Source: Candidatus Poribacteria bacterium (GTDB lineage: Bacteria > Poribacteria > WGA-4E > WGA-3G). Taken from it: DNA of 64,000 nucleotides. Positions within the stretch are counted from its first letter, which is position 1. Each line of letters starts with the position of its first letter. The stretch spans positions 203,043-267,042 of the forward strand of contig JAGWBV010000003.1 in the NCBI GenBank assembly GCA_021295715.1, read 5' to 3'. This document shows positions 3,836 to 59,848 of this stretch, piece by piece. A program made the translations under genes and the position numbers. The notes below the pieces were generated by a model. The model saw only the letters and a list, made by a program, of their open reading frames with translations. It had not been told where the DNA came from and searched no databases.

Positions 3836-3888
3836 AGTATCACGGGTGCGGTTTCAGACCGTGCCCATAGGAACGTCAGGAGAAATTG

Positions 3889-4650
3889 ATGAGCAATAGA
3901 ATTCCAATAGCGTTACAACTATATTCCGTTAGAGATGATTGTGCAGGCGACCTATCTTTAACGCTCCAAGCGGTCGCACAGATGGGTTATGAAGGTGTTG
4001 AGTTTGCGGGTTACTATGATCGGACTGCCGAAGAATTACGCGGGATGTGCGATGACCTCGGATTGAAAGTTGCGGGGACGCATACAGGGATAAACACACT
4101 TCTCGGTGATGAACTCGCCAAAACGGTTGAATTCAACAAGGGACTCGGCAATCCGTATCTGATTGTGCCGGGACTCTCTGCGGAGTACCAAGGTTCGCAA
4201 CAAGCATGGCGTGAGACAGCAAAACTCTTCAACGATATTGCTGAAAAAATCGCTGATCAAGGGATGTTCACGGGTTACCACAATCACACAGGTGAATTCA
4301 CACCGATGGAAGATGAAGTTCCGTGGGATATATTCGGCGAGAACACCCGTGACGATGTCGTGATGCAAATTGACATCGGTCATGCCCTTCGCGCAGGTGC
4401 CGACCCTGTGGCGTATATTGAACGCTATCCCGGTAGATCGAAATTGGTGCACCTGAAAGAGTATTCACCTACGAATGACAAGGCAAACGTCGGTGAAGGT
4501 GAGATTCCGTGGGAGGCTGTGTTCCATGCCTGTGAAACCGTCGGTGGCACGGAGTGGTACATCGTTGAACAGGAAAGTTACGCCTATCCACCTCTTGAAT
4601 GTGCGGAACGCTGCATCGAAAATCTACGAAAGATGGGGAAAATTTCTTAA
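3889..4650 (+). CDS. sugar phosphate isomerase/epimerase (xylose-isomerase-like TIM barrel)
   Basis: The product shows the AP endonuclease 2 / xylose isomerase-like TIM pattern (GYEGVEF ... HNHTGEF ... IDIGH). Start is ATG 3889 with AGGAGA 5 nt upstream; the track begins at TTG 3886. Confidence 0.8.
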   Translation: MSNRIPIALQLYSVRDDCAGDLSLTLQAVAQMGYEGVEFAGYYDRTAEELRGMCDDLGLKVAGTHTGINTLLGDELAKTVEFNKGLGNPYLIVPGLSAEYQGSQQAWRETAKLFNDIAEKIADQGMFTGYHNHTGEFTPMEDEVPWDIFGENTRDDVVMQIDIGHALRAGADPVAYIERYPGRSKLVHLKEYSPTNDKANVGEGEIPWEAVFHACETVGGTEWYIVEQESYAYPPLECAERCIENLRKMGKIS

Positions 4651-13191: not shown

Positions 13192-13196
13192 CTGCT

Positions 13197-14342: not shown

Positions 14343-14686
14343 GTTTTTTATAGCAGTCAGCCATCAGCAGTCAGCGCGGAATAGAAGATTGAAAGTCCCT
14401 TAGATGGAAGAATGGAAAGATAGGTGTCCGACTGTGCAACCTTCCAACCAAGCCTTGCTACCCAAACACTAAAGGTTCCCAATGGTTTCTATAATACCTG
14501 AAAACGGATTTGTTACCAAGAAAAAAGGGTTGCATTTTTTGGCGAAATTCGGTTAAAGTATATTCAAGAACATCTGAACCAGTTTACGGAACTATCGTCT
14601 GATTTCTTCGGAGCAAGTTTTCGGAACATATAGGTCACGCCGAAATTTCTGCTGAAGGGAGTAACGATTTGGACGTGGAGGACAAA

Positions 14687-24134: not shown

Positions 24135-25625
24135 TTACTGCATTGGTATGACCGAGACTGAGATATTGGAAAGGGTATAGAAAATATTGAGGAATCCAAT
24201 GAGAATCGTTGGGATGACAAAGACGCTCAAGAGCACGAACGTGCCGGTAGAAAAGGAGACCTGCGCTGTTTCCTCCGCAGCATCTTCGAGAAACATCGCT
24301 TTCACAATACGGGCATAATAGTAGAGCGAGACGACGCTATTGAGTAGACCGACAAATGCGAGCCAGTAATATCCTTGCTCAAGGACAGCGGCAAAGAGTA
24401 GCCATTTTCCGAAGAAACCCGCGAACGGCGGAATCCCTGTCAGCGAAAAGAGGAAAATCGCCATTGCCCAAGCGACCAATGGTGCACGCGAGGCGAGACC
24501 CCGGTAGCCCTCAATCATTTCACTCCCCTCCTCATTCGCAATCAGGACAACGACATAAAACGCGCCTAAGTTCATAAAGAGATAAACAACGAGGTAGAAG
24601 AGGATAGCGCCGACGCCTTCAGAGGTAAGCAGAACACCGCCCATCAAAAGGTAACCCCCGTGTGCGATGCTGGAATAAGCCAATAAACGTTTCACATTCT
24701 GCTGTGGCAAAGCGGCGAGATTTCCGACAGTCATCGTCAATGCGGAGACTATTGCTAACATAAAGGTCCAATCAACAGCTTGCATCAATTCAGAGTTGCC
24801 GAACCCGGAGTAGAAAAACCTGATGAACAAGGCAAAACCTGCGGATTTTGAGGCAACCGACAGAAAAGCAGTGATTGGAATAGGTGCGCCTTCGTAGACA
24901 TCAGGGGACCACATGTGAAACGGGACTGAGGCTATCTTATAGCCTACACCCGCAAGAATGAAGGTTATCGCAATCAGCACGGCAAGAGGGGCAACATCCC
25001 CAGATGCGAGGAGCTCGGTGAGTCGCACGCTAATTTGACCGAGATCGCCGGAGCCAGTCATCCCGAAGAGTAGGGACAATCCAAAAAGCATGGTTCCCGA
25101 CGCGACTGCCCCATACGTGATATATTTGAATGCGGCTTCACTCGAACGGGGGTTATGCGTCAAGAATCCAGCGAGAATATAGGAGGTAAGACTCACCGTT
25201 TCCAACGAGATGAATATCATCAACAGATTCGTTGACGAAGCCATCAGGAACATTCCGAGGGTAATGGCTAACAAGAGCGCGTAGTATTCGCCTTTCAATC
25301 GTGCGTCGAGTTCCTCGGAGCGGAGAGAAAAGAGAATCGTTGCAGCCGTTGCGAGCAGCAACAAAACTTTGAAAAAGCTGGAAAACACGTCAAGTCGGAC
25401 CATTCCCAAAAAGAGAGAAATAGGACCTTCATCGCCGAAAGAGAAGTGTGTGATAAGGACAGCGGCAAAAACGCAAATACAGCCTGCGAGGGAGAGATGT
25501 GCGACGGCGGAACTTTCTCTATCCTTCACGACGAGGTCAAGGAGCACAACAGCGGCGGCAAAAATCACAAGGAGGATTTCTGGACTGAAGTAGAGGAGGC
25601 TTTCGATGTTGCTTAAGGGTTGCAT
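24135..25625 (-). CDS. nuoN: NADH-quinone oxidoreductase subunit N
   Basis: A 496-aa polytopic antiporter-like subunit at the distal end of the nuo operon. ATG 25625 is fused to the repeat box. Confidence 0.9.
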   Translation of the reverse strand: MQPLSNIESLLYFSPEILLVIFAAAVVLLDLVVKDRESSAVAHLSLAGCICVFAAVLITHFSFGDEGPISLFLGMVRLDVFSSFFKVLLLLATAATILFSLRSEELDARLKGEYYALLLAITLGMFLMASSTNLLMIFISLETVSLTSYILAGFLTHNPRSSEAAFKYITYGAVASGTMLFGLSLLFGMTGSGDLGQISVRLTELLASGDVAPLAVLIAITFILAGVGYKIASVPFHMWSPDVYEGAPIPITAFLSVASKSAGFALFIRFFYSGFGNSELMQAVDWTFMLAIVSALTMTVGNLAALPQQNVKRLLAYSSIAHGGYLLMGGVLLTSEGVGAILFYLVVYLFMNLGAFYVVVLIANEEGSEMIEGYRGLASRAPLVAWAMAIFLFSLTGIPPFAGFFGKWLLFAAVLEQGYYWLAFVGLLNSVVSLYYYARIVKAMFLEDAAEETAQVSFSTGTFVLLSVFVIPTILIGFLNIFYTLSNISVSVIPMQ

Positions 25626-25845
25626 ATTTTAATTATACCTTGCGGTTCGGTCAGGTGCGTGGGTTCAATAATGTTTATCGGCGTATAACCGCCTGCGTGT
25701 TTTTGCTTGGGGTCTTTGCTTGGGCGTTTCTGCGTATTGTTGCAGGCTTTCTCATTTACCTGATTGACAGAATCCGTTTTTAATTTACCTGCAGGACACC
25801 GATGAGGTTGGTAACCGACTCGGAATGATAATGTGTCTACTGCCG
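25626..25845 (-). repeat. copy of composite intergenic element between nuoM and nuoN; includes an untranslated 31-bp duplicate of the nuoM 3' end
   Basis: ATTTTAATTATACCTTGCGG at 25626-25645. GCAGGACACCGATGAGGTTGGTAACCGACTC occurs at 25791-25821 and again at 25854-25884. Confidence 0.6.
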
Positions 25846-27354
25846 TTACTGATGCAGGACACCGATGAGGTTGGTAACCGACTCTCTGAACATATCAATA
25901 GCGAAGTTGGGCCAGACACCAAGCACGATGGTTAAGATTCCAAGCGGCACCAGTGTCAAGATTTCACGTCCATTGATTTCGGACAGTTTTTCATATTTAG
26001 GGTTGAGTGTCCCCAAGAAAACCCGTTGAAGCGTCCAGAGGAAATATGCCGCACCGACAACAATACCAATTGTGGACAAGATAGTCAACAGTTTGAATCT
26101 ATCGTAGGCACCGAGTAAGGAGAGTGCCTCTCCGACGAATCCGCTCAAGCCGGGCAGTCCCAAAGAAGCCATGAACGCAAGCGTCGTAATGCCAGTATAG
26201 ACGGGCATTTTACTTCCCAGGCCGCCGAATCCATTGATTTCACGGTGGTGCGCTCTGTCGTAAAGAACACCAACGAGTAGGAAGAGCATCGCACTGATGA
26301 CACCGTGGTTAAACATCTGAAGAATCGCACCGGTGATGCCACTATCATTTCGAGCGGCAAGCCCCAAGATAACGAAGCCCATGTGCCCGATACTGGAATA
26401 CGCCACCAACTTCTTAAAGTCGGTTTGTGCCAACGCACAGAAGGAACCGTAGACGATATTAATAAATCCAAGAAGTGCAAGACTATTGCCCCAGAAACCT
26501 ATCCCGTTCGTAAAATGGTCCAAGCCTTGTGGGAACATCGCCATGTTAACCCGAACCAGTCCATAAGTTCCCATCTTTAGGAGAATCCCCGCAAGGATAA
26601 CGCTAATGGCTGTCGGTGCTTCGACGTGTGCATCGGGAAGCCATGTATGGAACGGGAAGATCGGGACCTTAACGGCAAACCCGATAAAGAAACCCACGAA
26701 AACCCAGATCTGGAAGTCGGGGTTGTTAAGGGCGTGTCCTGCTGTAGATGCTAACGTAATGAGGGTCGGAATATCAAAGGTCCGCGCACCCGGTGCTCCA
26801 CTGTTGAGATAGACCGCTATCATCGCAACCAACATTAACACACTACCGAAGAGCGTATAAAGGAAGAACTTAATCGCAGCGTATTCGCGGCGCGGTCCGC
26901 CCCAGATACCGATAAGGAAGTACATCGGCAGGAGTGTCAGTTCAAAGAAAACGTAGAAAAGGAACAGATCCAAGGCAGCGAAGAAACCCAGCATCCCGGT
27001 TTCGAGCAGTAGGAACAACGCCATGTAAGCCTTGATACCTTTCTCGATGTTGCGCCAAGAGGCAATAACGCAGATAGGACCTAAGAGTGCAGTGAGGAGC
27101 AGAAGCGTCACACTGAGTCCGTCAATGCCGATGTGGTATTGGATATTAAATGCTTGGATCCAAGGAACGTTGACGACGTACTGCGTTCCTGCAGTCGAGC
27201 GGTCGTAGGATATGAATAAAGCGACAGCGAGTGCGAGAGGAATGAGTGTAAAAAGGAGCGTAACGCGTTTAACCAGTTCCTCTGACTCGCGCGGCAGAAG
27301 TAAAACAGCGATCATCCCGAGCAACGGGATAAAAATCATTAGCGACAGTAACAT
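25846..27354 (-). CDS. nuoM: NADH-quinone oxidoreductase subunit M
   Basis: A 502-aa antiporter-like subunit with the conserved TWLPDAHVEAPT region. Confidence 0.9.
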   Translation of the reverse strand: MLLSLMIFIPLLGMIAVLLLPRESEELVKRVTLLFTLIPLALAVALFISYDRSTAGTQYVVNVPWIQAFNIQYHIGIDGLSVTLLLLTALLGPICVIASWRNIEKGIKAYMALFLLLETGMLGFFAALDLFLFYVFFELTLLPMYFLIGIWGGPRREYAAIKFFLYTLFGSVLMLVAMIAVYLNSGAPGARTFDIPTLITLASTAGHALNNPDFQIWVFVGFFIGFAVKVPIFPFHTWLPDAHVEAPTAISVILAGILLKMGTYGLVRVNMAMFPQGLDHFTNGIGFWGNSLALLGFINIVYGSFCALAQTDFKKLVAYSSIGHMGFVILGLAARNDSGITGAILQMFNHGVISAMLFLLVGVLYDRAHHREINGFGGLGSKMPVYTGITTLAFMASLGLPGLSGFVGEALSLLGAYDRFKLLTILSTIGIVVGAAYFLWTLQRVFLGTLNPKYEKLSEINGREILTLVPLGILTIVLGVWPNFAIDMFRESVTNLIGVLHQ

Positions 27355-27641
27355 TTTTTAATTATTCCTTGCGGTTCGGTCAGGCGGGTTTAAGGTTTAG
27401 AATGCCTTTCCGTATACCCGTCCTCCATTTCATTACGGACTATGCGTTTTGTAAAATTAACTTAAGACAGCAGCCTGCAACAACGGAGCAGGCGGAGCCC
27501 CCAAAATCGTTATGAAACTAACCCCTTCATTTAACGCCTTGCGAACAATTAGAAAACCTCCACTTCGTTACGGGCTACGGGTTTGTGCGACACCAAGTCC
27601 CTGCGCGTAATGGAATGGAGTGCGGGGTGAAAACCCAACAG
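27355..27641 (-). repeat. copy of composite intergenic element between nuoL and nuoM
   Basis: TTTTTAATTATTCCTTGCGG at 27355-27374 is fused to the nuoM ATG. The distal GCCTGCAACAACGGAGCAGGCGG hairpin module is present. Confidence 0.55.
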
Positions 27642-29814
27642 TTAGAGAACCCGAAAAATCAAGATTAACAACACAATTCCCGCGAGCACAACGAAGAGAT
27701 AGGTCTGAATCGCGCCGGTCTGGATCTGACGAACTCTTCCACCAACTGCCCATGTAACTTCAGCGACTCGATTGACGATGCCATCAACGACACGATTATC
27801 AAAAGCACCGATGAACACAGCGAGGAAATCGCGCGTTACTTTTCCAACACCGTTGACGATACCGTCAACAATAGTTCCATCAAATTGAGCAAAGAGTCGT
27901 GCTTTCCACACCGTTAGCGCGACCAATACATCGTCGTAAAATTCGTCAAAGTAGTATTTATGCCAGAAAAGATTATAAAGCGGTCGAAATGTCGTTGCGA
28001 CAGATTCGGCAGACAAAGTTCTCCTGTGGTAGAACAACCATGAGAGCAGTATACCTAATCCAGCGGCGCAGATAGATAGAATCATCGCGATGGCATGTGC
28101 GGGACCGTGTCCATGATGTCCATCATCCGCGTGCGCGCCGTGTGTATCGTGTCCGCTTTCTTCGGCTGCGACTGCTTCAGAAACGCCGAAAAGCGATAGT
28201 GTAATCCCCGCCTTGTTAGTTCTGCTGTCCGGTGAGACATGCGCGTGCTGCGGTGCGTGAAGATGCGGTTGTTCTGGCGGTTTAATATAGTTATCGTTAA
28301 ACCAAAGTATATTCACGACAGGCAGACTTAAAGCAGCCAAAATGAGGAGCGGCACGGTCATCGACTTCGGGGATTCATGCGCCATGTCGTGCATCTCCTG
28401 ATTGCGCGGTTCGCCGAAGAAGGTCATGAAAATCAGTCGGAACATATAGAACGCCGTAATTCCAGCGGCAAAGAGTGCTATACCGAATAGGAGATAGTGA
28501 TGGACGGAGTTCCATTCCATCGCCCGCCCGAGCACGCCGCCTAAGATCGCGTCCTTGCTCCAGAACCCGGAGAAGACAAAAGGCACTCCAGAAATAGACA
28601 ACGTTGCGATGAGCATCGTGACAAAAGTAATTGGCATTTTGTGGCGCAATCCGCCCATGTTCCGCATGTCCTGATCGGGCGGAATCTCGGAACCGTGATC
28701 ATGGACTAAATCGTGGTCGCCGTGGGCATGCCCATGTTCATCGTGGTCGCCGTGGGCATGATGCATAGCGTGGAAAGCGTGGATAACGCTTCCTGAACCG
28801 AGAAACAGCAGTGCCTTGAAAAAGGCGTGTGTCGTGAGGTGGAAAAGTCCCGCGACATAACTGCCAGCCCCAATCCCAAGCATCATATAGCCAAGTTGGC
28901 TAATTGTGGAGTATGCCAGAACCCGTTTAATGTCGAAGCGAACAATAGCGATAGTCGCAGCGATGAGTGCGGTAATACCACCGATATAGGCAATTACCAG
29001 AGACGAGGTCTCTGTTAGAATCGGGAACATCCGAGCCGTGAGATATACCCCGGCGGCAACCATTGTGGCGGCATGAATCAATGCACTAACGGGTGTAGGA
29101 CCCTCCATCGCATCAGGGAGCCATGTATGCAACGGCACCTGTGCCGATTTACCAATAGCACCACAAAAGATGAGGACACCTGTTCAATAGAGAAGCAGCC
29201 TGGGCAAAAATACCGTCTCCTCCGTAGAGTGAGAGCGTTTCAAATTTGGTGAAGAGCATCATCATGCCGATGAACATACCGACATCACCGACACGGGTCG
29301 TCAAAAATGCTTTTTTACAGGCATTCGCGGCGGAGTCCTTTTCAAACCAGAAACCGATGAGCAGATAAGAACAGAGTCCAACGAGTTCCCAACCGATATA
29401 AATACCGAGCAGGTTATCCGACACGACCAAGAAAAGCATGGAAAAGGAAAAGAGCGAAAGGTAGGCAAAAAACCGTGGGTATCTCGGATCCCCGTGCATG
29501 TAGCCCATCGAGAAAATATGAACGAGGCTACTGACGAGCGTGACAACAATCAGCATGATCACTGTAACGCTGTCCAAATAGAAACCCATAGAGAAGGTAA
29601 CACCACCGAGCGAAATCCACTGAACTGTATAAGGGACTGGGTCGGGAACGACTTCTCGCAAAAGCAGGAGCGAAGAAATAAGTGCAACGAGCATTGCTGC
29701 AGTGGATAGATAATCCTGTCGCGGGAAACTCCGATTTCCCAAGCCCAAAAGCCCAAAGATCGCAAATGCGGCAAGTGGGCAAAGCAAGATGAGACTTATT
29801 AAAAATACAATCAT
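27642..29814 (-). CDS. nuoL: NADH-quinone oxidoreductase subunit L, reading frame interrupted (two ORFs 29149..29814 and 27642..29138)
   Basis: The N-terminal ORF ends abnormally (... AQAASLLNRCPHLLWCYW*). The next frame reads TGVLIFCGAIGKSAQVPLHTWLPDAMEGPTPVSALIHAATMV, which is the canonical NuoL motif. A 1-nt indel lies near 29181-29190. Confidence 0.75.
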
Positions 29815-29936
29815 ACTTTGTTAATTTAAGCCTTTCCTTCTATTAGTTTTCGGTTATCAGTTCTCGGCTATCGGTCAAGACAGGTTTTGTGCCTCCGAAA
29901 CCTCTTGTAACTGATAACTGAATACTGATAACTCTC

Positions 29937-30245
29937 TTAACCTTTTAAGGTATCAACTTCGTTGGGACGTATGCTACCGAATTCACGGTAGATCGCGAGG
30001 ATAATCGCCAAAAAGACAGCGGCTTCCGCTGCGGCGAGTACAATCCCAAAAATCGCGATAATTTGTCCGTTGATGTCCTCCGGCGGTGTCATAAAACGCG
30101 AGAATGCGGCAAAGTTAAGATTACACGAATTAAGAATAAGTTCAATTCCCATCAAAATACTAATGGCATTGCGTCGGGTCAGGACAGCGAAGATACCGAG
30201 CGTGAACAGAATCGCACTGATAACGAGATAGTGTTGTAGGGTCAT
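29937..30245 (-). CDS. nuoK: NADH-quinone oxidoreductase subunit K
   Basis: It is 102 aa with three TM helices and the conserved Glu-containing TM2/TM3. Confidence 0.85.
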   Translation of the reverse strand: MTLQHYLVISAILFTLGIFAVLTRRNAISILMGIELILNSCNLNFAAFSRFMTPPEDINGQIIAIFGIVLAAAEAAVFLAIILAIYREFGSIRPNEVDTLKG

Positions 30246-30345
30246 TTTTTTAGTGGCTATCGGCTATCGGCTATCGGCTATCAGTAAAGAGGATTTCGTT
30301 TAACAAAAGACTCTTGTGACTGATGGCTGATGGCTGATGGCTATC

Positions 30346-30864
30346 TTAGTCCCTAACCTCCTTTCGGGAAATCAGGGCGGCTCCGATTAATGCAACTAAC
30401 AACAGCACAGAGACGACTTCAAAGGGGAGAAGAAATTGCCCATTCAGGATCAATTCGCCAATGCGTTCTGTTGTCGGTGGAAGCTCGGTGCCATCGTCGG
30501 TGAGATTCTTCCATGCGGGTGTATTCGCAATAACGGTTAAGAGCAACATAAGCAGTGCCAGCGCAACCACACCTCCGAGCAGAAGTTGCCCGCGTTCAAT
30601 ATGAACGCGCATCTCCAAGTGTCCGCTGGTCATCATGACACCGAATAAAATGAGGACGAGTATACCGCCGACATAGACAATTACCTGCGTTGCGGCGAGA
30701 AAATCAGCCTGTAAAAAGACATAAAGCCCAGCAACCCCAAAGAGCGTCACCATGAGCGAAAACGCCGCGTGGACGATGTTTCGGACATTGACAACAACGA
30801 GCGCGGACGCAATTGTCATCAGGGCAAATCCGTAAAAAACAAAGGTTTTGAGCGTAAATTCCAT
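30346..30864 (-). CDS. nuoJ: NADH-quinone oxidoreductase subunit J
   Basis: A 172-aa membrane subunit. ATG 30864 is fused to the repeat box. Confidence 0.85.
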   Translation of the reverse strand: MEFTLKTFVFYGFALMTIASALVVVNVRNIVHAAFSLMVTLFGVAGLYVFLQADFLAATQVIVYVGGILVLILFGVMMTSGHLEMRVHIERGQLLLGGVVALALLMLLLTVIANTPAWKNLTDDGTELPPTTERIGELILNGQFLLPFEVVSVLLLVALIGAALISRKEVRD

Positions 30865-31014
30865 ATTTTAATTTTACCTTGCGGAGAAACAATGTGCGTT
30901 TCGGCTTTTAGGTGCGTCGCTTATATCCGCCTGCGCCGTTGTTGCAGGCTACTGCTTCCGGTCTAACGAAAGCCTCTTTACTGACTGCTAATTGCTAATC
31001 GCCAATTTTACCGT
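30865..31014 (-). repeat. copy of composite intergenic element between nuoI and nuoJ
   Basis: ATTTTAATTTTACCTTGCGG at 30865-30884 is followed by the ATATCCGCCTGCGCCGTTGTTGCAGGC hairpin module, then CTGACTG CTAATTG CTAATCG heptads. Confidence 0.6.
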
Positions 31015-31734
31015 CTAATCCGCGGCATCCACTTCTTCGGTGCTACCTTTACCGTACATTTCTTGCTTGTCAAACTTAAAGATTAAATCCGACCGATCAA
31101 ATTTGGAGTATTCAATCCCGGCGAGCGTGTCCTTCATGGTGAGACACTCCGTCGGACAAACCTCAGTGCAAAGTCCACAATACATACAGAGGGACATATC
31201 GATATCGAACTGATCGAGATAGAAAACGACCGGATTTCGGGTGACAACCCGCGACACCTCGTCGCTGGAAAAAGTCTGGGTCCGATTCTCAATCCCGGAC
31301 GACTCAAGGCGGTCTACGACCTCCTGTGGACCTTGGCGAGAGGTAATATTCGTGAGGGTTATTGAATCCGCCGACTTTACCTGTTTATCGTCACCTTCAA
31401 TGAGACCGATGATTTCTCTGCCATCCTTGAGGTGCACAACATTCATGCTATCCCAGAGTTGTTCACCCTTGGGAAGTTTGGTCCCTGTGATCATAATGCA
31501 ATCAACCGGACAAATCATCTCACATTTTTTGCATCCGATGCAATCCTCAATTCGATTGTAGAGTTGCCCGCGATACCCTTTCGGAATCTCTCGAACGTTC
31601 CGTTTCTTTTCAAAGTCATGTTCATACGGGTATTGATGCGTGACGTTCGGTTCAAAAAACTGCCTGATCGTCACCCGCATCCCGACGAGAACGGTATAAA
31701 CGCCTCTGTAGATGTTTCGTATGTATTTGTCCAT
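31015..31734 (-). CDS. nuoI: NADH-quinone oxidoreductase subunit I (2x[4Fe-4S] ferredoxin-like), with a large insertion between the cluster motifs
   Basis: CIGCKKCEMICP and CMYCGLCTEVCP are separated by about 118 aa, versus about 39 in canonical NuoI. Confidence 0.85.
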   Translation of the reverse strand: MDKYIRNIYRGVYTVLVGMRVTIRQFFEPNVTHQYPYEHDFEKKRNVREIPKGYRGQLYNRIEDCIGCKKCEMICPVDCIMITGTKLPKGEQLWDSMNVVHLKDGREIIGLIEGDDKQVKSADSITLTNITSRQGPQEVVDRLESSGIENRTQTFSSDEVSRVVTRNPVVFYLDQFDIDMSLCMYCGLCTEVCPTECLTMKDTLAGIEYSKFDRSDLIFKFDKQEMYGKGSTEEVDAAD

Positions 31735-31880
31735 ATTTTAATTTTACCTTGCGGTGGAACAACGGATGCTTTCGACTTTCACGGCATTCCTTAAATCCGC
31801 CCTCCACTACGTTACGGGCTACCGGTTACGAGACTCTCCTAACCTAAGCTGCCACTTCCATATTCACTGACTGCCAATTG
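31735..31880 (-). repeat. copy of composite intergenic element between nuoH and nuoI
   Basis: ATTTTAATTTTACCTTGCGG at 31735-31754 is followed by the AAATCCGCCCTCCACTACGTTACGGGCTACCGG module, then CTGACTG CCAATTG TTAATTG heptads. Confidence 0.6.
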
Positions 31881-33155
31881 TTAATTGCTCATTACTCCTT
31901 GTGGTGCGGGACTCTGCGTGAGTCCCCTTCCAGCGACTTTATATGCGGCGATAAGTCCAATATAGATAATTGTGCAGCTAATGGCGGTGCTAATCACGGT
32001 GTCCTCTGGGAAAATGAGTCCCCAGATGCCAGTGCCTAAGATGTTGAAGAAGGCGATCGGGATAAAGTATTTCCAGCAGAGATTCATAAGTTGATCTACT
32101 CTCAAGCGCGGCAATGTCCATCTCAACCACATCATCAAAAAGACGAGTGCCATAGATTTGATAACGAAACCGGGGAACCCGCCGAGGATATCGTAACCCG
32201 GCAAAACGCCTTCCCAACCGCCGAGGAAAAGCGTTACAGCGATTGCGCTCACTGCAAACATATTCGCGTATTCAGCGATAAAGAAGAGTGCGAAGCGCAT
32301 ACCGCTATACTCGGTATGGAAACCCGCCACAATTTCAGATTCGGCTTCGGGCAAATCAAACGGTGTTCGGTTCACCTCAGCGATAGAAGAGATAAAGAAG
32401 ATAAAGAATGCAATAAAAGCAAAGGGTGTTCGGAAAATGAGCCAACTGAAAACGCCATTGGATTGACTTGCTACAATCTCCTGCATGCTTAAACTTTCGA
32501 CGAGCATAACAACAGTGAGAATGGAGAGACCGAGTGGGATTTCATAGCTGACAATCTGGGCAGCGGAGCGGAGCGACCCCAACAGTGACCATTTGCTATT
32601 CGAGGACCAGCCTGCCATGATCACCCCCATGACAATTACAGAGGAGATCGCCATTATATAGAAGATACCGATATTAAAGTCACTCACCAATATACCTTCA
32701 CTAAAGGGAATAGCGGCAAAGACAGCGAAAGAGCAGGCAAAAATGATATAGGGAGCAAGCAGAAAAAGGAGTTTATCGCCTTGTGGAGGAATAAAATCTT
32801 CTTTGAAGATGAGTTTCACACCGTCGGCTAACGTTTGCAGGGTGCCCCACGGTCCGACGCGCATGGGACCCGTTCGATTCTGGAAACGTGCGGAGACCTT
32901 TCGTTCTGCGAGCACCAACACCAACGGAAGTAGTGGGACAACTCCAACAAAAACGCCAGCACATGCGAACATGATGAGAACTGTGCCTATCTCCACAGGA
33001 AAATGCGAAGCAACCGCTTCCGGCAACCGCGGAATTACAACGTTCTGTATAAATTCCTCCGCCCAATTGAGCTGATTCTGTAAGTTTATATTGGGTAAGA
33101 AACTTTCAGATATGTTGAAGTCTGGGCGTGCAAACAGTGCCCTAAAATCCGACAT
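31881..33155 (-). CDS. nuoH: NADH-quinone oxidoreductase subunit H (with N- and C-terminal extensions)
   Basis: The conserved ERKVSARFQNRTGPMRVGPWGTLQTLADGVKL region is present. At 424 aa it is longer than the canonical length of about 330. Confidence 0.9.
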   Translation of the reverse strand: MSDFRALFARPDFNISESFLPNINLQNQLNWAEEFIQNVVIPRLPEAVASHFPVEIGTVLIMFACAGVFVGVVPLLPLVLVLAERKVSARFQNRTGPMRVGPWGTLQTLADGVKLIFKEDFIPPQGDKLLFLLAPYIIFACSFAVFAAIPFSEGILVSDFNIGIFYIMAISSVIVMGVIMAGWSSNSKWSLLGSLRSAAQIVSYEIPLGLSILTVVMLVESLSMQEIVASQSNGVFSWLIFRTPFAFIAFFIFFISSIAEVNRTPFDLPEAESEIVAGFHTEYSGMRFALFFIAEYANMFAVSAIAVTLFLGGWEGVLPGYDILGGFPGFVIKSMALVFLMMWLRWTLPRLRVDQLMNLCWKYFIPIAFFNILGTGIWGLIFPEDTVISTAISCTIIYIGLIAAYKVAGRGLTQSPAPQGVMSN

Positions 33156-33199
33156 CCAATCTCCTTATCTGATTCGGTAAACTTCGATATGAAGCGCGT

Positions 33200-34405
33200 T
33201 TACCGGTCGACTTCTCCCATCACAATATCAATGCTGCCGATAATCGCGATAATATCTGCGACCATTAAACCGCGACTGAGTTCTTGGAGTGCGCTCAAAG
33301 CACTGAAACAGGGGGAACGTCCCTTGAGACGGACCGGCTTCGGTGTGCCGTCGCTGACAATGTAGAATCCGAGTTCACCGCGCGGGGCTTCACTGCGGAA
33401 ATAGATTTCGCCTTTCGGTGGACGGACGGCTTTTAAATCTGCCATCACTGGACCACCGGGGAGCCCTCCCGCTAAAATCTGTCGGACAATTCGGACAGAT
33501 TCCTTCATCTCATCCATACGGATTTTGTATCGACTCCAGCAGTCCCCGACGACCGCCCCTAATTCTGGAACGTCCACAGCAACAGGGACATCAAAGTCGA
33601 ACCTGTCGTAAATAGAGTAGGGTTCGTCTCGTCGCAGATCCCAATCAACACCGGAACCGCGAAGGTTCGGACCTGTCGCGCCGTAACTCAGTGCCATCTC
33701 CGCTGGCATAACAGCGACCCTCATCGTGCGTTCCGCGAAGATGCTGTTTTTTGTCAGGAGTTCGTTATATTCGTCAATCAACGGTTCAAAATAGTCTAAA
33801 AATGCTTCGACTTCGTCCAAAAAATTCTGTTCTGTAATGGAACCCGGTTCCATCGGGATGATTTCGGAAACGCCACCGATGCGGATATAGTTATAGGTGA
33901 GCCGTGCGCCGCACACTTTCTCAAAAAGTAGGAGCAACCGTTCTCGATCCCGGAAGGCGTAGAGAAATGGGGTAAACGCGCCGAGGTCCATCCCGTAGGT
34001 CCCGAAGGACAGGAGATGACTCGCAATACGATTTAATTCACAGATAAGCACCCGCAGGTATTCCGCCCGTTCCGGCACCTCAAAGTTCTTGCTTTCATCC
34101 GCCTCCAACAATTTCTCGACAGCGAGACAGAATCCCCAGTTCTGGTTCATCGCCGCTATGTAATCCATTCGGTCGGTAAAGGGAATAATTTGGGGATAGG
34201 AGAGATTCTCGGAATGCTTCTCAAAACAGCGATGCAGGTAGCCGATGTGGGGGATTGCTTCCCGAACGACTTCACCATCCAATTTCAATTCCAGCCGTAA
34301 CACACCGTGTGTACTTGGATGCTGAGGTCCCATATTGACAACCATTTCATCGGCGAACGGTTTCAACTCTATAATTTTGCTTTCAGTCTGTGGTGTAGTT
34401 TCCAT
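33200..34405 (-). CDS. nuoD: NADH-quinone oxidoreductase subunit D (49-kDa subunit)
   Basis: It carries the MVVNMGPQHPSTHGVLRL signature. The ORF directly abuts nuoH (44-nt gap), so nuoE/F/G are not in this operon. Confidence 0.9.
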   Translation of the reverse strand: METTPQTESKIIELKPFADEMVVNMGPQHPSTHGVLRLELKLDGEVVREAIPHIGYLHRCFEKHSENLSYPQIIPFTDRMDYIAAMNQNWGFCLAVEKLLEADESKNFEVPERAEYLRVLICELNRIASHLLSFGTYGMDLGAFTPFLYAFRDRERLLLLFEKVCGARLTYNYIRIGGVSEIIPMEPGSITEQNFLDEVEAFLDYFEPLIDEYNELLTKNSIFAERTMRVAVMPAEMALSYGATGPNLRGSGVDWDLRRDEPYSIYDRFDFDVPVAVDVPELGAVVGDCWSRYKIRMDEMKESVRIVRQILAGGLPGGPVMADLKAVRPPKGEIYFRSEAPRGELGFYIVSDGTPKPVRLKGRSPCFSALSALQELSRGLMVADIIAIIGSIDIVMGEVDR

Positions 34406-34615
34406 TTTTCAATTTTACCTTGCGGACTTTTAATTTTACCTTGCGGTTAAAACAGGGTAGTTTGGTTTATGACGGTCTTTTCTTAAATCCGCTTTCCACT
34501 TCGTTTCAAGCTGCGTTTCTTTTTACGTAGGACTTACGCGTTCTCTCTTAATTTTTGGATTTTACCACTATATATGATACCACTTTTGCCGTTTAATGTC
34601 AAATCTGAACTGCCC
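34406..34615 (-). repeat. copy of composite intergenic element between nuoC and nuoD, with two tandem start-proximal boxes
   Basis: TTTTCAATTTTACCTTGCGG (34406-34425) and TTTTAATTTTACCTTGCGG (34428-34446) are followed by the CTTAAATCCGCTTTCCACTTCGTTTCAAGCTGCG module. Confidence 0.6.
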
Positions 34616-35101
34616 CTAATACGGCACGCGCATACCGCGATAGAATTCCGGTTCCTTATAATCCTTACGTAGCGGGTATCCGTCCCAATCATCGGGAAGC
34701 AAGATGCGGCGGAGATCGCTGTGTCCCTCAAAAAAGATGCCGTAGAGGTCATAAGCTTCACGTTCGTGCCAATCGGCTGTTTTCCAGATATGTGAGACGC
34801 TTGGGAGGTGCGAATCGGTTTTCGGAACTGTTGTTTTCAGCACCACGCTATGCCGATGCTGCATGGCATAGAGATGGTAGACAATAGCAAATTCTTCGTC
34901 GTTGGCACTCAAATCAACACCACTAAGGCACATCAGGGAATCAAATGCCAATGTGTCGGTTTCGGCGAGATATTGGCACACATCGGCGATTGCTGAGGGG
35001 GCAATACGAATATTCGGGTCACCAGCGAGTTCGGTGTCAAAACCGAGGATGGCTTCACCAAACTGTTTGGTCAGGACTTCATAGATTTCTTCTGGTTTCA
35101 C
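34616..35101 (-). CDS. nuoC: NADH-quinone oxidoreductase subunit C (30-kDa subunit)
   Basis: 161 aa with the conserved ADWHEREAYDLYGIFFEGH motif. Confidence 0.85.
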   Translation of the reverse strand: MKPEEIYEVLTKQFGEAILGFDTELAGDPNIRIAPSAIADVCQYLAETDTLAFDSLMCLSGVDLSANDEEFAIVYHLYAMQHRHSVVLKTTVPKTDSHLPSVSHIWKTADWHEREAYDLYGIFFEGHSDLRRILLPDDWDGYPLRKDYKEPEFYRGMRVPY

Positions 35102-35209
35102 GTATATCCTACTCCATGATCGCGATTACAAATCGCTCCTATCGTTGAACGAACTGGTATTTTAGGTAGTGGTTTCAGGCTTTCGGCGCAGCTTGCAAGC
35201 CGAAACTTG

Positions 35210-35779
35210 CTATGTACCTTCACCTTCTGCAGTTTCAGTGCCTTCAATCTCGTACCACTCCGTTTTGGTAAAGAGTCTCTTTAGGAAGGGCACGTGATCG
35301 CGTTTCGCGACAGTCTGGGTTTTAATTTTCTCTTGTAATTTAAGCAGCCCTTCAATGAGTGCCTCCGGGCGTGGTGGACACCCAGGCACATAAACGTCAA
35401 CAGGGATAACCCGATCAACGCCTTTGAGAACGTGATATCCGTGTTGCCAATAGGGTCCGCCGCTGGTAGCACAACTGCCCATTGAAATGACGTATTTCGG
35501 TTCCGGCATCTGCTCATAAAGGCGTTTAATTCGAGTTGCCATTTTGAGCGTCACCGTGCCAGAGATGACCATGAGGTCAGATTGGCGGGGTGTCGCACGC
35601 GGCACACCTGCCCCGAATCGGTCGAGGTCGTAGTTGGAAGCGGCAGTCGCCATAAACTCAATAGCGCAACAAGCAAGTCCGAACGTCATGGGCCAGAGTG
35701 CGGAGGAGCGTGCCCAGTTAGCAACGGCATCAACTGAGGTGACAATAACGTTTTTGTCCAGTTTCTCATCAATTATCAT
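35210..35779 (-). CDS. nuoB: NADH-quinone oxidoreductase subunit B
   Basis: It has the N2-cluster motifs GLACCAIE and [10 protein letters not shown], and VPGCPP. The likely start is ATG 35779 (GGAGGG upstream, 7 nt after the nuoA stop) rather than the overlapping 35863. Confidence 0.85.
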
Positions 35780-36179
35780 AACTTTCTTCCCTCCGGACGG
35801 ATTGAACTTCCAACTGCGTGGATCGAATCCACTCCAGATCCCCCTTTGCCCAGACGTATGCAAGTCCGACTAACAGGATCGCGATGAAAACGAGCATCTC
35901 CAAAAATGCGAAGAGCCCAAAGTCGCGGAAAACGACCGCCCACGGGAAAAGGAACACGGTCTCCACGTCAAAGATTAGGAAAATGAGCGCGATGACATAA
36001 AACCGGGTGTTAAACTTAATCCGCGTATCACCGATCGGATCTTCGCCGCATTCGTAGGGGATATACTTTTCGCCTGAGAATAGTTTGGTCTGCAGGAGGC
36101 GAGAGACAGTCAGGTTTAGGACGACAAATAAACAGCCAACAATCAAGAAGATTAGCACATTTGCGAAGTTAAAAAGCAT
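35769..36179 (-). CDS. nuoA: NADH-quinone oxidoreductase subunit A
   Basis: It is 136 aa with three TM helices and is the first cistron of the operon. Confidence 0.85.
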
Positions 36180-36237: not shown

Positions 36238-36275
36238 TTTTAAAATTATATATCATTTTGCGCTAATTTGCAAGT
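36238..36275 (-). promoter_or_regulatory. candidate sigma70-type promoter of the nuo operon (TTGCAA-N17-TATAAT)
   Basis: On the minus strand the -35 TTGCAA lies at 36268-36273 and the -10 TATAAT at 36245-36250. The spacing is exactly 17 nt, about 60 nt upstream of the nuoA ATG. Confidence 0.45.
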
Positions 36276-39360: not shown

Positions 39361-40158
39361 ATGAAAATGCCCAAACTCGTCGTTGGATACCTTATGGATG
39401 ACGAAATGTTCGTCAAATCTTTCACGATCCCAGAATCTCACGATTGGATCAAGTGGTTAGCGAACGAGGAACTTGCTCAGTTTTTTGGGGAATTACTGGA
39501 ATTGATGATCCAAATTTCAGAGGACAAGGAAGATAGCGAAACGCTTCAGACTTTTCTCGACTTTTGGCATGAAATTGCCTTAAGTTGGCGCGAAATAGCC
39601 TTAGGCGAGGAAGATTCTGAGATATTTGAAGAAGCTAGCAAGACCTCTCCGACCGTCGTTACCGATTGGAGCGTTGATGCTTTAGAAGCTGCCTTAAAAG
39701 GGCAAGATCCCGCGACGCTTTTGAATTCTCTCGCCGGTTTCATCGGAAAAGCCATGATCGGTTCCGAACGGGATGTCGTGGCAGATACTTTGGAGGCAGA
39801 ACAGGAATTGGATTCGCCCTGGATAGATATTATTGGGGTGCAACCGGAGCAAAGACCAAGGACTCGCAAGACGCACGCTGAACCGGAGCCTGTGGCTGAT
39901 GTGACGAAACAGCAACGAGACACCTACTTAGCGCAACCTATCCGCGAACTTGAACTCTCTACCCGAGCCTACAATTCTCTTAAAAATGAAAATATCAAAA
40001 CCGTCCGAGAACTCGTCGCAAAAATGGAATGGGACCTTCTGGAATACCAGAATTTCGGAGAGAAGTCGCTCCTCGAAGTCCAAAACCGACTCGCTGTCAG
40101 GGGCCTCTACCTCGGAATGGACCCCGACGACACGGACGACGAGGAGGCATCATTCTAA
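39361..40158 (+). CDS. protein with unknown N-terminal domain and C-terminal RNA polymerase alpha-subunit CTD-like helix-hairpin-helix domain (paralog A)
   Basis: The C-terminus IRELELSTRAYNSLKNENIKTVRELVAKMEWDLLEYQNFGEKSLLEVQNRLAVRGLYLGM aligns residue-by-residue with the E. coli RpoA CTD ([58 protein letters not shown]). It has an acidic tail, and GGAGA lies 6 nt upstream of the ATG. Confidence 0.65.
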   Translation: MKMPKLVVGYLMDDEMFVKSFTIPESHDWIKWLANEELAQFFGELLELMIQISEDKEDSETLQTFLDFWHEIALSWREIALGEEDSEIFEEASKTSPTVVTDWSVDALEAALKGQDPATLLNSLAGFIGKAMIGSERDVVADTLEAEQELDSPWIDIIGVQPEQRPRTRKTHAEPEPVADVTKQQRDTYLAQPIRELELSTRAYNSLKNENIKTVRELVAKMEWDLLEYQNFGEKSLLEVQNRLAVRGLYLGMDPDDTDDEEASF

Positions 40159-43708: not shown

Positions 43709-44371
43709 ATGACCGTTTCCCACGTTGTAAGAAGAAACATCCGCCTCCTCAGTCTTCGGAATACAGGTTCTTTCCAGAGAGACGATAAGTTTGAATATCC
43801 GTTGTCTGTACTGCGGGAATCGATTATCAACGCATTGATTCATCGCAACTATCAAAAACACTCGGATGTCCGAGTTTTCATATTCGACAACCGCGTTGAG
43901 ATTATTAATCCCGGCACTTTTCCAGAAGGGATCAGCCCAGACACGCCAGTCCATGAACCGGTAAATCCCATCTTAAGCCGATTCATGTACGATATTGGTT
44001 TCATTGAGCGTTACGGCTCTGGTATCAGGATGATGAAAAGGCTCTCCGCGGAATGGGGAAACAAGGAACCGCGTTATGAATTTCATCCACTTCAAACCAC
44101 AATCATCTTTGATTCGCCGATTCAAGAGAGCACTTTTATAGAGATTGACGATATTTCAGCACAATTGAGCGAGCGTCAAAAGAATACCCTGTTTCATGTA
44201 GAAAAAAACGGGCAAATTGCGACAAGAGAATATGCGGAGATCAACCATATTTCGCCCAGAACTGCCTATACCGAACTCAAGGATTTAACAGACAAAGGGC
44301 TATTGACTGCAATAGGCAAGGGAAGAGGAATTAGGTACGTCCGAAAAGTGGACGATCAGGTAATCGATTAA
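43709..44371 (+). CDS. N-terminally truncated HATPase_c_4 (RecG-C-terminal-like) domain protein with C-terminal wHTH
   Basis: ESIINALIHRNYQKHSDVRVFIFDNRVEIINPG is the HATPase_c_4 core. The N-terminal AlbA_2 domain usual for this family is absent. Confidence 0.55.
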   Translation: MTVSHVVRRNIRLLSLRNTGSFQRDDKFEYPLSVLRESIINALIHRNYQKHSDVRVFIFDNRVEIINPGTFPEGISPDTPVHEPVNPILSRFMYDIGFIERYGSGIRMMKRLSAEWGNKEPRYEFHPLQTTIIFDSPIQESTFIEIDDISAQLSERQKNTLFHVEKNGQIATREYAEINHISPRTAYTELKDLTDKGLLTAIGKGRGIRYVRKVDDQVID

Positions 44372-44427
44372 TTGCGTGATTAATTGCGTGATTAATTGCG
44401 TGATTAATTGCGTGATTAACTACGCGA
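44368..44427. repeat. tandem repeat (TTAATTGCGTGA) x4 perfect plus one degenerate unit
   Basis: The 12-bp unit is repeated head-to-tail and overlaps the stop codon of the preceding gene. Confidence 0.8.
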
Positions 44428-58261: not shown

Positions 58262-59848
58262 TTAAAAAGTTTGCGACGCAGCAACGCGGACTTTGTCTAT
58301 ATAGAGTTTATACTCGAAACTATCTATGAGTGCCTCGCAACTTGCGGAAATAATATTCTCTGAAACACCGACGGTACTCCAAATCCTTTCACCATCGCCC
58401 GCTTCAATTAATACCCGAACTTTTGAACCCGTGCCAGCCTTCGTATCCAACACCCGAACTTTATAATCTATGAGTCGAACCGTCTGGAGGGCAGGATAAA
58501 ACTGCTCAAGTGCCTTTCGGAGTGCGGTGTCAAGGGCATTGACGGGACCATCTCCATCAGCGGCAGTGTGTGCGGTAAGCCCGTCTGGGGTTGTGACTTT
58601 TATAGTCGCTTCGGAACGCATCGCGAAGTCGCTGAACTGTTCGATAATCACGCGGAAACCGACAGGTTCAAAGAAGGCTTTGTACGCATTGAAAACCTTA
58701 TGCGTCAAGAGTTCAAACGAGGCTTCGGCGGCTTCGTATTGGTAGCCTTCCTGTTCCGCTGCTTTGAGGCGTTTGAAGAGTTCCAGTACCTGCGGTGAAT
58801 CCTTGTCGTAATCCGGGTACTCCCTCTCGATTTTCTTCATAATAGTGCCGCGTCCGGCTTGATCGGAAACCAGAATTCGTTGTGTATTGCCGACTGTTTC
58901 CGGTACGACATGTTCATAAGTGAGACGGTTTTTACGGATGGCATCGGTATGTAAACCGCCTTTATGCGCAAAGGCGGAACGTCCAACGTAGGGTTGACGT
59001 TCGTCATGCGGGAGGTTCGCCAATTCACTGATGAGTCGGGAGACGCGTGTTAACGCCTGCAACTGCGTATCACTGAGGGACTTTATTCCGAGTTTGAGTT
59101 GAATTGTAGGGATAATGGCGGCGAGATTCGCGTTTCCGCACCGTTCACCGTAGCCGTTGAAAGTGCCTTGTATATGGGTTGCGCCTGCCTGCACGGCGAG
59201 CACTGAGTTCGCGGCACCCATTCCTGCGTCGTTGTGGGTATGGATACCGACAGGCAATGACAGATCGGAGAGGACGACTTCAACACCTTCCTGAATTTCT
59301 AAGGGCAATCTGCCGCCATTCGTATCACAGAGGACGAGGCAATTCGCGCCACCAGCGGCAGCGGCTCGTAGCGTTTCCATCGCATATTCAGCATCGTCGG
59401 CGTAACCATCGAAAAAATGCTCGGCATCATAGATGACCTCACGACCATTTTCCACGAGATAACGGACAGAACTCTCAATTAATTCTAAGTTCTCCTCAGC
59501 TGTGACGCGTAGGACATCAGTCGCATGAAGTCGCCAACTTTTTCCAAAGATCGTTACAATTCTTGCCCCTGTATCCAGCAAAGCGGTTAGATTTGGATCG
59601 GCATCGGCGGTATAGGTGGGATAGCGCGTGCTACCGAACGGCACGATGGTTGCCGTTTCGAGCGCCATGCCTTTTGCCCGCTTGAAAAATTCTATGTCTT
59701 TTGGATTGGAGCCGGGATAGCCGCCCTCAATATAGCGAATGCCTAACTTATCCAATGCCTCTATGATGATGAGTTTATCTTCAACAGAAAACGCCACGCC
59801 TTCTGCTTGGCTACCATCCCTGAGTGTCGTATCGTAAAATTCAACCAT
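58262..59848 (-). CDS. cimA: citramalate synthase / 2-isopropylmalate synthase family (CimA-like)
   Basis: N-terminal TTLRDGSQAEGVAFSVEDKL DRE-TIM metallolyase motif, a HTHNDAGMG (HxH) motif, and 528 aa with a C-terminal LeuA-dimerisation-like domain. Confidence 0.75.
   Translation of the reverse strand: MVEFYDTTLRDGSQAEGVAFSVEDKLIIIEALDKLGIRYIEGGYPGSNPKDIEFFKRAKGMALETATIVPFGSTRYPTYTADADPNLTALLDTGARIVTIFGKSWRLHATDVLRVTAEENLELIESSVRYLVENGREVIYDAEHFFDGYADDAEYAMETLRAAAAGGANCLVLCDTNGGRLPLEIQEGVEVVLSDLSLPVGIHTHNDAGMGAANSVLAVQAGATHIQGTFNGYGERCGNANLAAIIPTIQLKLGIKSLSDTQLQALTRVSRLISELANLPHDERQPYVGRSAFAHKGGLHTDAIRKNRLTYEHVVPETVGNTQRILVSDQAGRGTIMKKIEREYPDYDKDSPQVLELFKRLKAAEQEGYQYEAAEASFELLTHKVFNAYKAFFEPVGFRVIIEQFSDFAMRSEATIKVTTPDGLTAHTAADGDGPVNALDTALRKALEQFYPALQTVRLIDYKVRVLDTKAGTGSKVRVLIEAGDGERIWSTVGVSENIISASCEALIDSFEYKLYIDKVRVAASQTF

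Follow-up and report, generated by a model that had tools for sequence, protein, structure and literature searches.

The 64,000-nt stretch of Candidatus Poribacteria contig JAGWBV010000003.1 analysed here (the window) carries on its minus strand, at 24135-36179, a respiratory complex I cluster of 11 genes (nuoA, B, C, D, H, I, J, K, L, M and N, with no nuoE, F or G). Spacers of this cluster, and others in the window, are filled by copies of a repeated element that ends in a 20-nt box, CCGCAAGGTAAAATTAAAAT, made up of a core, CCGCAAGG, and a tail, TAWAATTAAAAW. A preliminary description of the stretch had pointed to a conserved modular element, oriented with the downstream gene and fused to its start codon, as unexpected in a compact nuo operon, and this holds. 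It had not seen that the element looks like a mobile mosaic of the repetitive extragenic palindrome (REP) and bacterial interspersed mosaic element (BIME) kind, or that inverted boxes abut stop codons. We favour, at a rough probability of 0.45, the reading that this is a transcribed repeat whose box serves as a Shine-Dalgarno-poor translation initiation region.

Copies in the nuo cluster and elsewhere in the window

Allowing up to three mismatches, we found 11 matches to the box in the window versus none in 100 shuffled sequences, and a profile built from 117 copies recovered 12 element copies plus fragments. Each of the nine copies listed in the preliminary description contains the box, and a solo box lies in addition at 363-382 (+). 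The profile search added a copy at 58171-58270 (+), an inverted arm at 27464-27556 (+) and a partial copy at 4798-4849 (-). Gene identities were checked by Pfam; L-numbers below designate public-genome loci fetched for comparison with the window.

Within the nuo cluster the copies lie on the minus strand. The nuoC-nuoD spacer copy (34406-34615) comprises hairpin GCAGCTTGAAACGAAGTGGAAAGC, a proximal stretch and two tandem boxes (34427-34446 and 34406-34425) that repeat with a 21-nt period and end at the nuoD ATG; a canonical promoter, TTGACA-N17-(TG)TATCAT, lies ahead of the hairpin at 34574-34602. Another near-consensus promoter precedes nuoA (36245-36273), and the two together suggest that the cluster comprises at least two transcription units. 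In the nuoH-nuoI spacer (31735-31880, hairpin GCCCGTAACGTAGTGGAGGGC) the box at 31735-31754 ends at the nuoI ATG, and in the nuoI-nuoJ spacer (30865-31014) heptamers at 30986-31007, a GTAG-tagged hairpin, GCCTGCAACAACGGCGCAGGC, at about 30929-30952 and a 44-nt proximal stretch lead to a box (30865-30884) ending at the nuoJ ATG. Two spacers hold modules without a canonical box: between nuoJ and nuoK (30246-30345) a hairpin lies between two heptamer arrays, which on the sense strand read GCCATCA three times and GATAGCC four times, and between nuoK and nuoL (29815-29936) heptamer arrays and a hairpin of the AAGAGG...CCTCTT type are followed by a degenerate tail, AAGGCTTAAATTAACAAAGT, before the ATG. 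No Shine-Dalgarno site precedes nuoK, only ACTAAAAAA before its ATG.

The nuoL-nuoM spacer is occupied by a composite element (27355-27641), of which the sense-arm box (27355-27374) ends at the nuoM ATG and the inverted arm (27464-27556, +) terminates in an alternative box, CGCCTTGCGAACAATTAGAAAA (27535-27556); the junction between its arms, 27461-27478, is the same as at locus L050. The box of the nuoM-nuoN copy (25626-25845) occupies 25626-25645 and ends at the nuoN ATG. This spacer also contains a box-like sequence, CCTGCAGGTAAATTAAAAA (25777-25795), fused to 32 nt duplicated from the 3' end of nuoM, such that 25790-25821 repeats 25853-25884. The exact abutment of the box to the ATG of nuoN, nuoM, nuoJ, nuoI and nuoD, and the tandem boxes before nuoD, are thus as first described. 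The nuoL gene itself is split into two open reading frames (ORFs), 29149..29814 and 27642..29138, with a frame change at 29139-29180 (-) just before a conserved motif; contigs whose NuoI is identical to that of the window have an intact nuoL of 733-742 aa, and the split marks either a pseudogene or an indel introduced in sequencing or assembly.

Outside the cluster, the solo box at 363-382 (+), without a hairpin module, adjoins the ATG at 383 of an FdhD-family (fdhD-like) gene. A full copy at 15426-15627 (+), with heptamers, a long GCCTGC...GCAGGC hairpin, a proximal stretch and a box at 15607-15626, precedes a SpoU (trmH-like) methylase gene with a TTG start at 15628, and another full copy, at 47303-47458 (-) with its box at 47304-47323, precedes a class I/II aminotransferase gene with its ATG at 47302. 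The box had been thought to end at the start codon of both these genes: the adjacency is real, with one extra A between box and start in each. Two copies are antisense to both of their neighbours. The reverse complement of the box (4644-4663) of the copy at 4642-4853 (-), which contains the partial second hairpin module at 4798-4849 (-) and lies between plus-strand genes, supplies the TAA stop (4648-4650) of gene 3886..4650. The copy at 58171-58270 (+), between minus-strand genes, has a core mutated from CCGCAAGG to CTACTAAGG that is intact in the L118 ortholog, and its box TTA at 58262-58264 is the TAA stop of gene 58262..59848.

The copy at the FG-GAP/ASPIC gene (11437-11589, -; box 11439-11458) had been placed with its box 18 nt before the ATG, probably wrongly: the ORF opens at an ATG at 11487 or 11478, so that its 5' coding sequence most likely includes the box, read there as RKVKLK within the n-region of a signal peptide. 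In a second FG-GAP paralogue (window 11590-13281, compared with L032:2340-2570), the 5' coding sequence for the signal-peptide n-region resembles a diverged proximal stretch plus box. Two other tandem repeats of the window, a perfect 12-nt repeat, GATTAATTGCGT (4.5 copies, 44366-44419), and a 21-nt repeat, TTGGCACGAAATAGCCTTAAG (1.9 copies, 39564-39603), are unrelated to the element.

Anatomy and RNA structure

A full copy spans the whole spacer between two genes. Its modules follow the fixed order given in the preliminary description, which the aligned copies bear out: heptamers, one or more hairpin modules, an unstructured stretch of about 45 nt and the 20-nt box, with the hairpin 45-47 nt upstream of the box. 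Tandem Repeats Finder located the 7-nt arrays at 30986-31007, at 14352-14375 and in the box-less nuoJ-nuoK and nuoK-nuoL spacers. Hairpin modules are interchangeable variants, one or more per copy and at times in inverted pairs; GTAG stands ahead of the hairpin exactly in 72 of 144 modules and is one base off in most others, and the distal module carries a second hairpin, AAGAGG...CCTCTT. Modules occur in both orientations, with inverted hairpins or composite arms at window 27355-27641, L028 and L050, and there are two alternative start-proximal boxes, CGCCTTGCGAAYAATTARAAAA and CAGYCCAGGAGNNATAAATTAAAAA. A sub-module, GAAAYACCCAAGCAAAAAC, lies inside the long hairpin variant, and its reverse complement, GGGTTTTTGCTTGGGTRTTTC, just after hairpin B (for example L008, L016:7662, L100, L106 and window 15540-15580); being found in both orientations, it behaves as an independently invertible or insertable unit.

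Whole elements are also arrayed in tandem at L101 (about 2650-3650, -) and L024 (about 4990-5210). Because each of the seven 142-nt units at L101 terminates in a box while an ATG follows only the last of them, the element unit ends at box position 20 and the ATG is not part of it. In copies found by their hairpins, and hence unselected by the search pattern for the box, position A10 is conserved in 100% and T14 in 97%, and positions 9, 11, 13 and 15 vary.

The hairpin subtypes proposed earlier are genuine and are supported by compensatory changes. When the structure is given explicitly, stem pairs shift jointly from C-G to U-A (89/11, 90/10 and 53/45, and 65/26 for an inner loop-closing pair), and the covariation score of 0.313 exceeds that of shuffled alignments (0.169, with 0 of 500 as high) and of slid controls (at most 0.146). 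A U-G pair that is common in the hairpin is possible on the sense strand alone. RNAalifold supports only the hairpin stem and a trivial CC/GG pair; it found no conserved structure in the 45-nt stretch and box, whose single-sequence folds are no better than those of shuffles, and we reject a structured RNA spanning this proximal region. An apparent AGGAAC/GTTCCT helix reflects subfamily linkage rather than covariation. The region from -20 to +20 of genes that adjoin a box is less structured than that of Shine-Dalgarno genes (-1.9 versus -4.1 kcal/mol).

Spacing to start codons

We took a census of 231 boxes from 120 loci and the window, requiring that a start codon open a long ORF. A start codon lies 10-14 nt after CCGCAAGG in 92 of the 231 boxes, with a peak at exactly 12 nt (66 boxes), so that the adjacency seen in the window is upheld by tabulation over many loci. 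Where the distance is 11-15 nt (94 boxes), the start codon is ATG in 84, GTG in 5 and TTG in 5, and ATG accounts for 89% of box-adjacent genes versus 78% of Shine-Dalgarno genes. The other boxes comprise 11 in tandem 21-nt box duplications, 19 in tandem whole elements (as in L101), 14 followed by a normal Shine-Dalgarno site and start, 27 with the ATG of a long ORF within 200 nt, 64 without a sense gene downstream and 3 too close to a locus edge to be classified.

Genes without a box use GGAG or GAGG, mostly 6-8 nt before the start, much as the preliminary description had said of other genes here, and box-adjacent genes have no Shine-Dalgarno site besides the box. The AAGG of the box, already judged too distant to serve as such a site, lies 12 nt from the start: a normal site pairs over at least 4-5 nt at 5-9 nt before the start, and this one offers 4 nt at 12 nt. 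When positions are counted over the non-box genes of all loci, GGAG/GAGG has its main peak at -12 to -10 and a shoulder at -19 to -14; GGAGG or GAGG stands 12-13 nt before the ATG in several genes (L026 nuoN, window gene 16321), and long Shine-Dalgarno spacing may be tolerated in this phylum.

Some genes read in frame through the box as PQGKIKK... (L039, L072 (MurQ-like), L054, L090 (homocysteine methyltransferase-like), L032:2490, L025, L028 and L113) and lack an ATG, GTG or TTG both at their conserved N-terminus and upstream of it. The ATT within the box (positions 13-15) may be the start codon of these genes; it would yield typical MKK... signal or lipoprotein peptides in several of them. 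At L032 the GGAGGG of the hairpin may act as the Shine-Dalgarno site for a GTG within the element. At L085:1278, L056:2302, L117:6770, L086 and L003/L051 a canonical TTGACA-N17-TATAAT promoter of the next gene lies 10-40 nt past the box, whose AT-rich tail there occupies the position of a promoter UP element.

Turnover between related species

Syntenic loci of other species, 77-92% identical to the window, record gain, loss and exchange of the element. At L026, nuoM and nuoN are separated by a 21-nt junction, nuoM-TAG-GGAGG-N12-ATG-nuoN, in which the element is absent, and in the window and L063 a 220-nt element ends at the same nuoN ATG; here the element has replaced a Shine-Dalgarno site. 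At nuoH-nuoI the window and L016 carry different variants, both ending at the ATG, between coding sequences that are about 95% identical. L118 has two antisense copies that are absent from the window, one of which replaces the last codon and stop of a gene, and the SpoU spacer of L032 contains no element. None of these comparisons of filled and empty sites (nuoM-nuoN, L118, SpoU/L032) revealed a target-site duplication. Presence and absence, variant replacement and inversion are the behaviour of mobile or recombining mosaic DNA.

The box appears to be spared in this turnover where it adjoins a start. Nine of 70 copies are truncated at their 5' end, leaving 8-49 nt after the upstream stop, with the box still next to the ATG. 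Under a census model that excludes the box, core changes of two or more bases were found in 0 of 27 start-adjacent copies versus 6 of 27 non-adjacent ones. A tail duplication at L063 nuoN retains TATAAT-N6-ATG while shifting the core.

Taxonomic range and abundance

Scanning one genome per species, we found the element at no fewer than 120 loci; among the matches listed, 77 of 80 loci belong to Candidatus Poribacteria metagenome-assembled genomes (MAGs), mostly sponge-associated bins and including complete chromosomes, and one match, in Scandinavium, is due to chance. The element is thus a trait of the phylum Poribacteria. With 12 copies in the 64-kb window and an estimated one box per 9 kb in the fetched loci (one seed per locus discounted), we estimate about one copy per 5-10 kb, or several hundred per genome. 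An Rfam scan of the window at gathering score returned two tRNAs only, an Rfam search of the nuo region at E<=5 returned one chance miRNA match and no known RNA family, and a literature search on Poribacteria repeats, promoters and leaderless genes returned nothing on this element, which is abundant, phylum-wide and apparently undescribed. Searching viral contigs for the box as a host expression signal gave five chance matches within coding DNA and was uninformative. The box also resembles the sense strand of 16S helix 27 and its 900-tetraloop (L145, L162 and L179; CCGCAAGGTTAAAACTCAA versus CCGCAAGGTAAAATTAAAA, a 9-nt identity), a likeness that may be due to chance.

Transcription of the element and translation initiation

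Promoters in these genomes, such as those before tRNA genes, nuoA and nuoD, are near-consensus TTGACA-N17-TATAMT. At three independent start-adjacent loci such a promoter lies just before the element, 120-180 nt from the box (nuoD in the window and L016, TTGACA-N17-TATCAT; L043, TTGACA-N17-TATAAT; L115, TTGACA-N17-TAAAAT), so that the element there would form a 5' untranslated region (5'UTR). Upstream neighbours are co-directional or divergent in 73 and 6 cases for box-adjacent genes versus 116 and 29 for Shine-Dalgarno genes (p=0.02), and where ORFs read through the box it must be transcribed. Taken together with the truncations and the pattern of core decay, these observations favour a transcribed element that serves translation initiation.

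On this reading, the element in sense orientation would be part of the mRNA, transcribed either from the gene upstream or from a canonical promoter that immediately precedes the hairpin. A structured 5' or intercistronic segment would be formed by the hairpin, and the last 20 nt before the AUG by the box, whose AU-rich, structure-free tail would let ribosomes load without a normal Shine-Dalgarno site; any contact of the AAGG with the 16S tail would be weak and long-spaced. In roughly one gene out of seven, among them nuoD, I, J, M and N, the box would thereby stand in for the Shine-Dalgarno site. Selection would keep the box where it adjoins a start codon; elsewhere it would decay, or serve incidentally as a TAA stop or a lysine-rich signal-peptide n-region. 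The preliminary description had offered an AU-rich translation enhancer as an alternative to a leaderless -10, and of these two the enhancer is the better supported.

Several observations weigh against translation initiation as a full account. The 16S 3' tail is canonical, CACCUCCUUUCU (CCUCCUUUCU, GGATCACCTCCTTTCT), in 10 metagenomic 16S genes that carry a presumed Poribacteria primer site (no boxes lie in their flanks), so only the AAGG can pair with it, at 12 nt. Pairing of CCGCAAGG with an extended 16S tail is thereby rejected, and complementarity of the box to the rest of 16S reaches a longest run of 7, a length that shuffled boxes attain as well. CGCCTTGCGAAYAATTARAAAA, an alternative box that lacks AAGG, is directly followed by a candidate ATG start in L088, and tail duplications put the core 17-25 nt from the ATG at L063 nuoN, L029 and L052, so that the AU-rich tail, rather than the AAGG, looks like the important part; translation starts in A-rich, unstructured contexts seem to be usual for this organism, as at nuoK. 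Ribosome loading does not explain the invariance of CCGC, A10 and T14, which a -10 (A-11/T-7) or a protein site would fit equally well, and the conservation of CCGCAAGG may serve propagation of the element or a binding protein. Our search for transcript-derived nuoI contigs returned long metagenomic contigs only. Finally, whichever way the box is oriented, its outer end lies tight against gene boundaries, and its adjacency goes beyond starts. Among the 101 boxes that are neither start-adjacent nor tandem, 39 point towards the 3' end of a long opposite-strand ORF, and 30 of these 39 ORFs stop at the TAA in the reverse complement of the box, as at 4648-4650 and 58262-58264 in the window. Because these inverted boxes hug stops as sharply as others hug starts, part of the adjacency must stem from the dynamics of insertion and deletion. 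At L050 a composite element separates two tRNA genes: it touches the CCA end of tRNA-Ala with one of its boxes, and its other box stops 2 nt short of the tRNA-Ser gene, where translation is irrelevant.

That tRNA-Ser box is among the observations that would suit an outward -10 element instead. TAWAAT would occupy -12 to -7, with G at -14 and the transcript starting at the A of the ATG, and leaderless monocistronic mRNAs would arise inside as well as outside operons. This idea, raised in the preliminary description, retains its geometry, which is exactly TANNNT-N6-ATG and is preserved at L063 nuoN where the core has moved away; A10 and T14 would be the -11 and -7 positions of the hexamer, the excess of ATG starts agrees with leaderless transcripts, and some boxes are directly followed by a Shine-Dalgarno site and start. 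The box, however, has neither a -35 nor a TG extension in genomes whose true promoters are near-consensus, the canonical promoters lie 120-180 nt upstream of three start-adjacent boxes, and the divergent contexts that require a promoter are depleted. Start codons include TTG and GTG, as in the window SpoU gene, ORFs that read through the box require its transcription, and a general TANNNT peak at -12 is absent from genes that lack a box. We therefore consider a leaderless promoter unlikely. We are similarly doubtful of a dedicated initiation signal, either a Shine-Dalgarno-independent site for ribosomes or a factor, or a leaderless promoter lacking a -35, with CCGCAAGG read by a Poribacteria-specific protein and spread by REP-like DNA to about one gene in seven across the phylum. 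Nothing comparable to the box as an initiation signal was found in Rfam or the literature searched, and by-eye comparison with CsrA, sigma-54, sigma-28, IHF and boxA/nut sites matched none of them to the consensus positions.

The element may instead be selfish DNA, a mosaic akin to REPs, their hairpin-forming doublets (REPINs) or miniature inverted-repeat transposable elements (MITEs), with the box as a terminal recognition sequence lacking an evolved host function. Abutment to starts, stops and tRNA ends would then follow from target choice and spacer deletion, the AU-rich end being merely tolerated as an initiation context. The REP-like, GTAG-tagged hairpins, the interchangeable and invertible modules, the tandem arrays of L101 and L024, composites with boxes at both outer ends (L050; window 27355-27641), turnover between close species and the nuoM 3'-end duplicate fused to a box tail all suit this account. 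So do termini better conserved than interiors, which are typical of mobile elements, and the 30 TAA stops supplied by inverted boxes, given that GTAG-REPs are known to provide TAG stops at their ends (PMC3733652). Against it, start-abutting boxes (92) outnumber those that give an opposite-strand stop (30), core decay is confined to copies away from starts, and 5'-truncated copies always retain the box beside the ATG; because box-adjacent genes lack another ribosome-binding signal, supporting initiation is the least that the box region must do. Most copies moreover have a single box without a terminal inverted repeat, no target-site duplication was identified, and a crude HUH...Y..NP motif search of about 1 Mb of Poribacteria loci found no ORF resembling a REP-associated tyrosine transposase (RAYT). 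A purely selfish element thus seems to us an improbable explanation.

RNase E-type enzymes cleave at RN↓WUU, and the AAAUU of the box tail fits such a site, with U14 as the key +2 uridine. Cuts just upstream of each AUG would uncouple the stability of the cistrons, and the upstream fragment would be protected at its 3' end by the hairpins. Position 13 does vary as W beside the 97% conserved U14, the intercistronic element has its covarying hairpins just ahead of the box, and the L050 boxes adjoin tRNA ends. However, the positions also fit a -10, the leader left by a cut 8 nt before the AUG would be very short, and solo boxes occur without hairpins, all of which makes an endonuclease site very unlikely. 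A transcribed repeat with an initiation region remains the reading that we prefer.

Comparison with known repeats and promoters

Among known repeats the closest in function are Neisseria REP2 (CREN) and the Borrelia plasmid IR, which are 120-150-bp intergenic repeats without terminal inverted repeats, directly upstream of ORFs, that have internal stem-loops near their 5' end and place 5'UTR stem-loops, a ribosome-binding site and a start in fusion with unrelated ORFs (PMC3184786). The element described here is likewise a single-ended intergenic repeat with internal hairpins, in copies of 150-290 bp. Unlike REP2, which has about 25 copies per genome and brings its own ATG together with a ribosome-binding site and a recognisable promoter, it has no ATG of its own, no normal Shine-Dalgarno site and no -35, and is estimated to number in the hundreds. 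Its consensus contains no -35/-10 pair: the canonical promoters upstream occur at three loci only, each locus-specific, and the box has a -10-like hexamer alone. It also lies mostly between co-directional genes, even within an operon, and is a mosaic with GTAG-REP modules and heptamers; the two are likened by description.

GTAG-tagged REPs, BIMEs and REPINs are high-copy extragenic sequences in which a palindromic hairpin of about 21 nt follows GTAG; they lie between unidirectional and convergent ORFs, occur as inverted pairs and in mosaics with other motifs, can supply stops from their termini and are probably transcribed (PMC3733652, PMC2817692). The hairpin module here is a GTAG-tagged REP by sequence definition, a 20-40-nt palindrome with unpaired GTAG at one end (PMC3733652), and it shares the alternating orientation and mosaic organisation of GTAG-REPs and BIMEs. 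REPs, in contrast, are found mostly downstream of genes and without a conserved box near a start, whereas here the hairpin is fixed relative to a 20-nt start-abutting box and the element is in excess in the sense orientation. The Correia elements (CREE/NEMIS) of Neisseria are small, abundant and co-transcribed with genes, and their AT-rich termini can be outward -10 elements (PMC3184786). They have 26-bp terminal inverted repeats and a TA target duplication, whereas this element is mostly single-ended with no duplication identified. The pairing of terminal inverted repeats at both ends with a target-site duplication that marks MITEs is likewise absent, inverted boxes being found in composites only.

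Tandem heptanucleotide arrays in intergenic DNA are also known from cyanobacteria as short tandemly repeated repetitive (STRR) sequences. The heptamers here differ in sequence from STRR1-3, and what they share is the arrangement as intergenic tandem heptamers. Mycobacterial interspersed repetitive units (MIRUs) are intercistronic, operon-oriented repeats that touch the flanking stop and start codons, typically with small bridging ORFs. A coupling ORF of the MIRU kind is absent here, 30 of 39 copies having no start codon in the frame ending at the box TAA.

In Actinobacteria and Deinococcus, the promoters of leaderless genes (PMC3160421, PMC3898074, PMC4007540) carry the motif TANNNT 6-7 nt before the start codon. 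Here the distance from the -10-like hexamer to the ATG is identical. That architecture is genome-wide in those groups, whereas here it is restricted to a repeat-borne box, and other genes use Shine-Dalgarno sites and promoters with a strong -35.

Significance for Poribacteria

For the annotation of Poribacteria MAGs, start calling is affected at the FG-GAP gene, at the genes that read through the box and at genes without a canonical start beside it, and gene finders based on Shine-Dalgarno sites will misplace starts in this phylum. The phylum can also be recognised cheaply by sequence, with the box as a marker. Were the box to drive initiation, a mobile repeat would have overwritten the ribosome-binding sites of many genes in an uncultivated phylum of sponge symbionts, among them single cistrons of a respiratory complex with 1:1 stoichiometry, and the element would be a natural, portable expression cassette that reshapes operon architecture. 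Should the box prove a dedicated initiation signal, it would define an expression regulon that is carried by the repeat and extends into the complex I operon.

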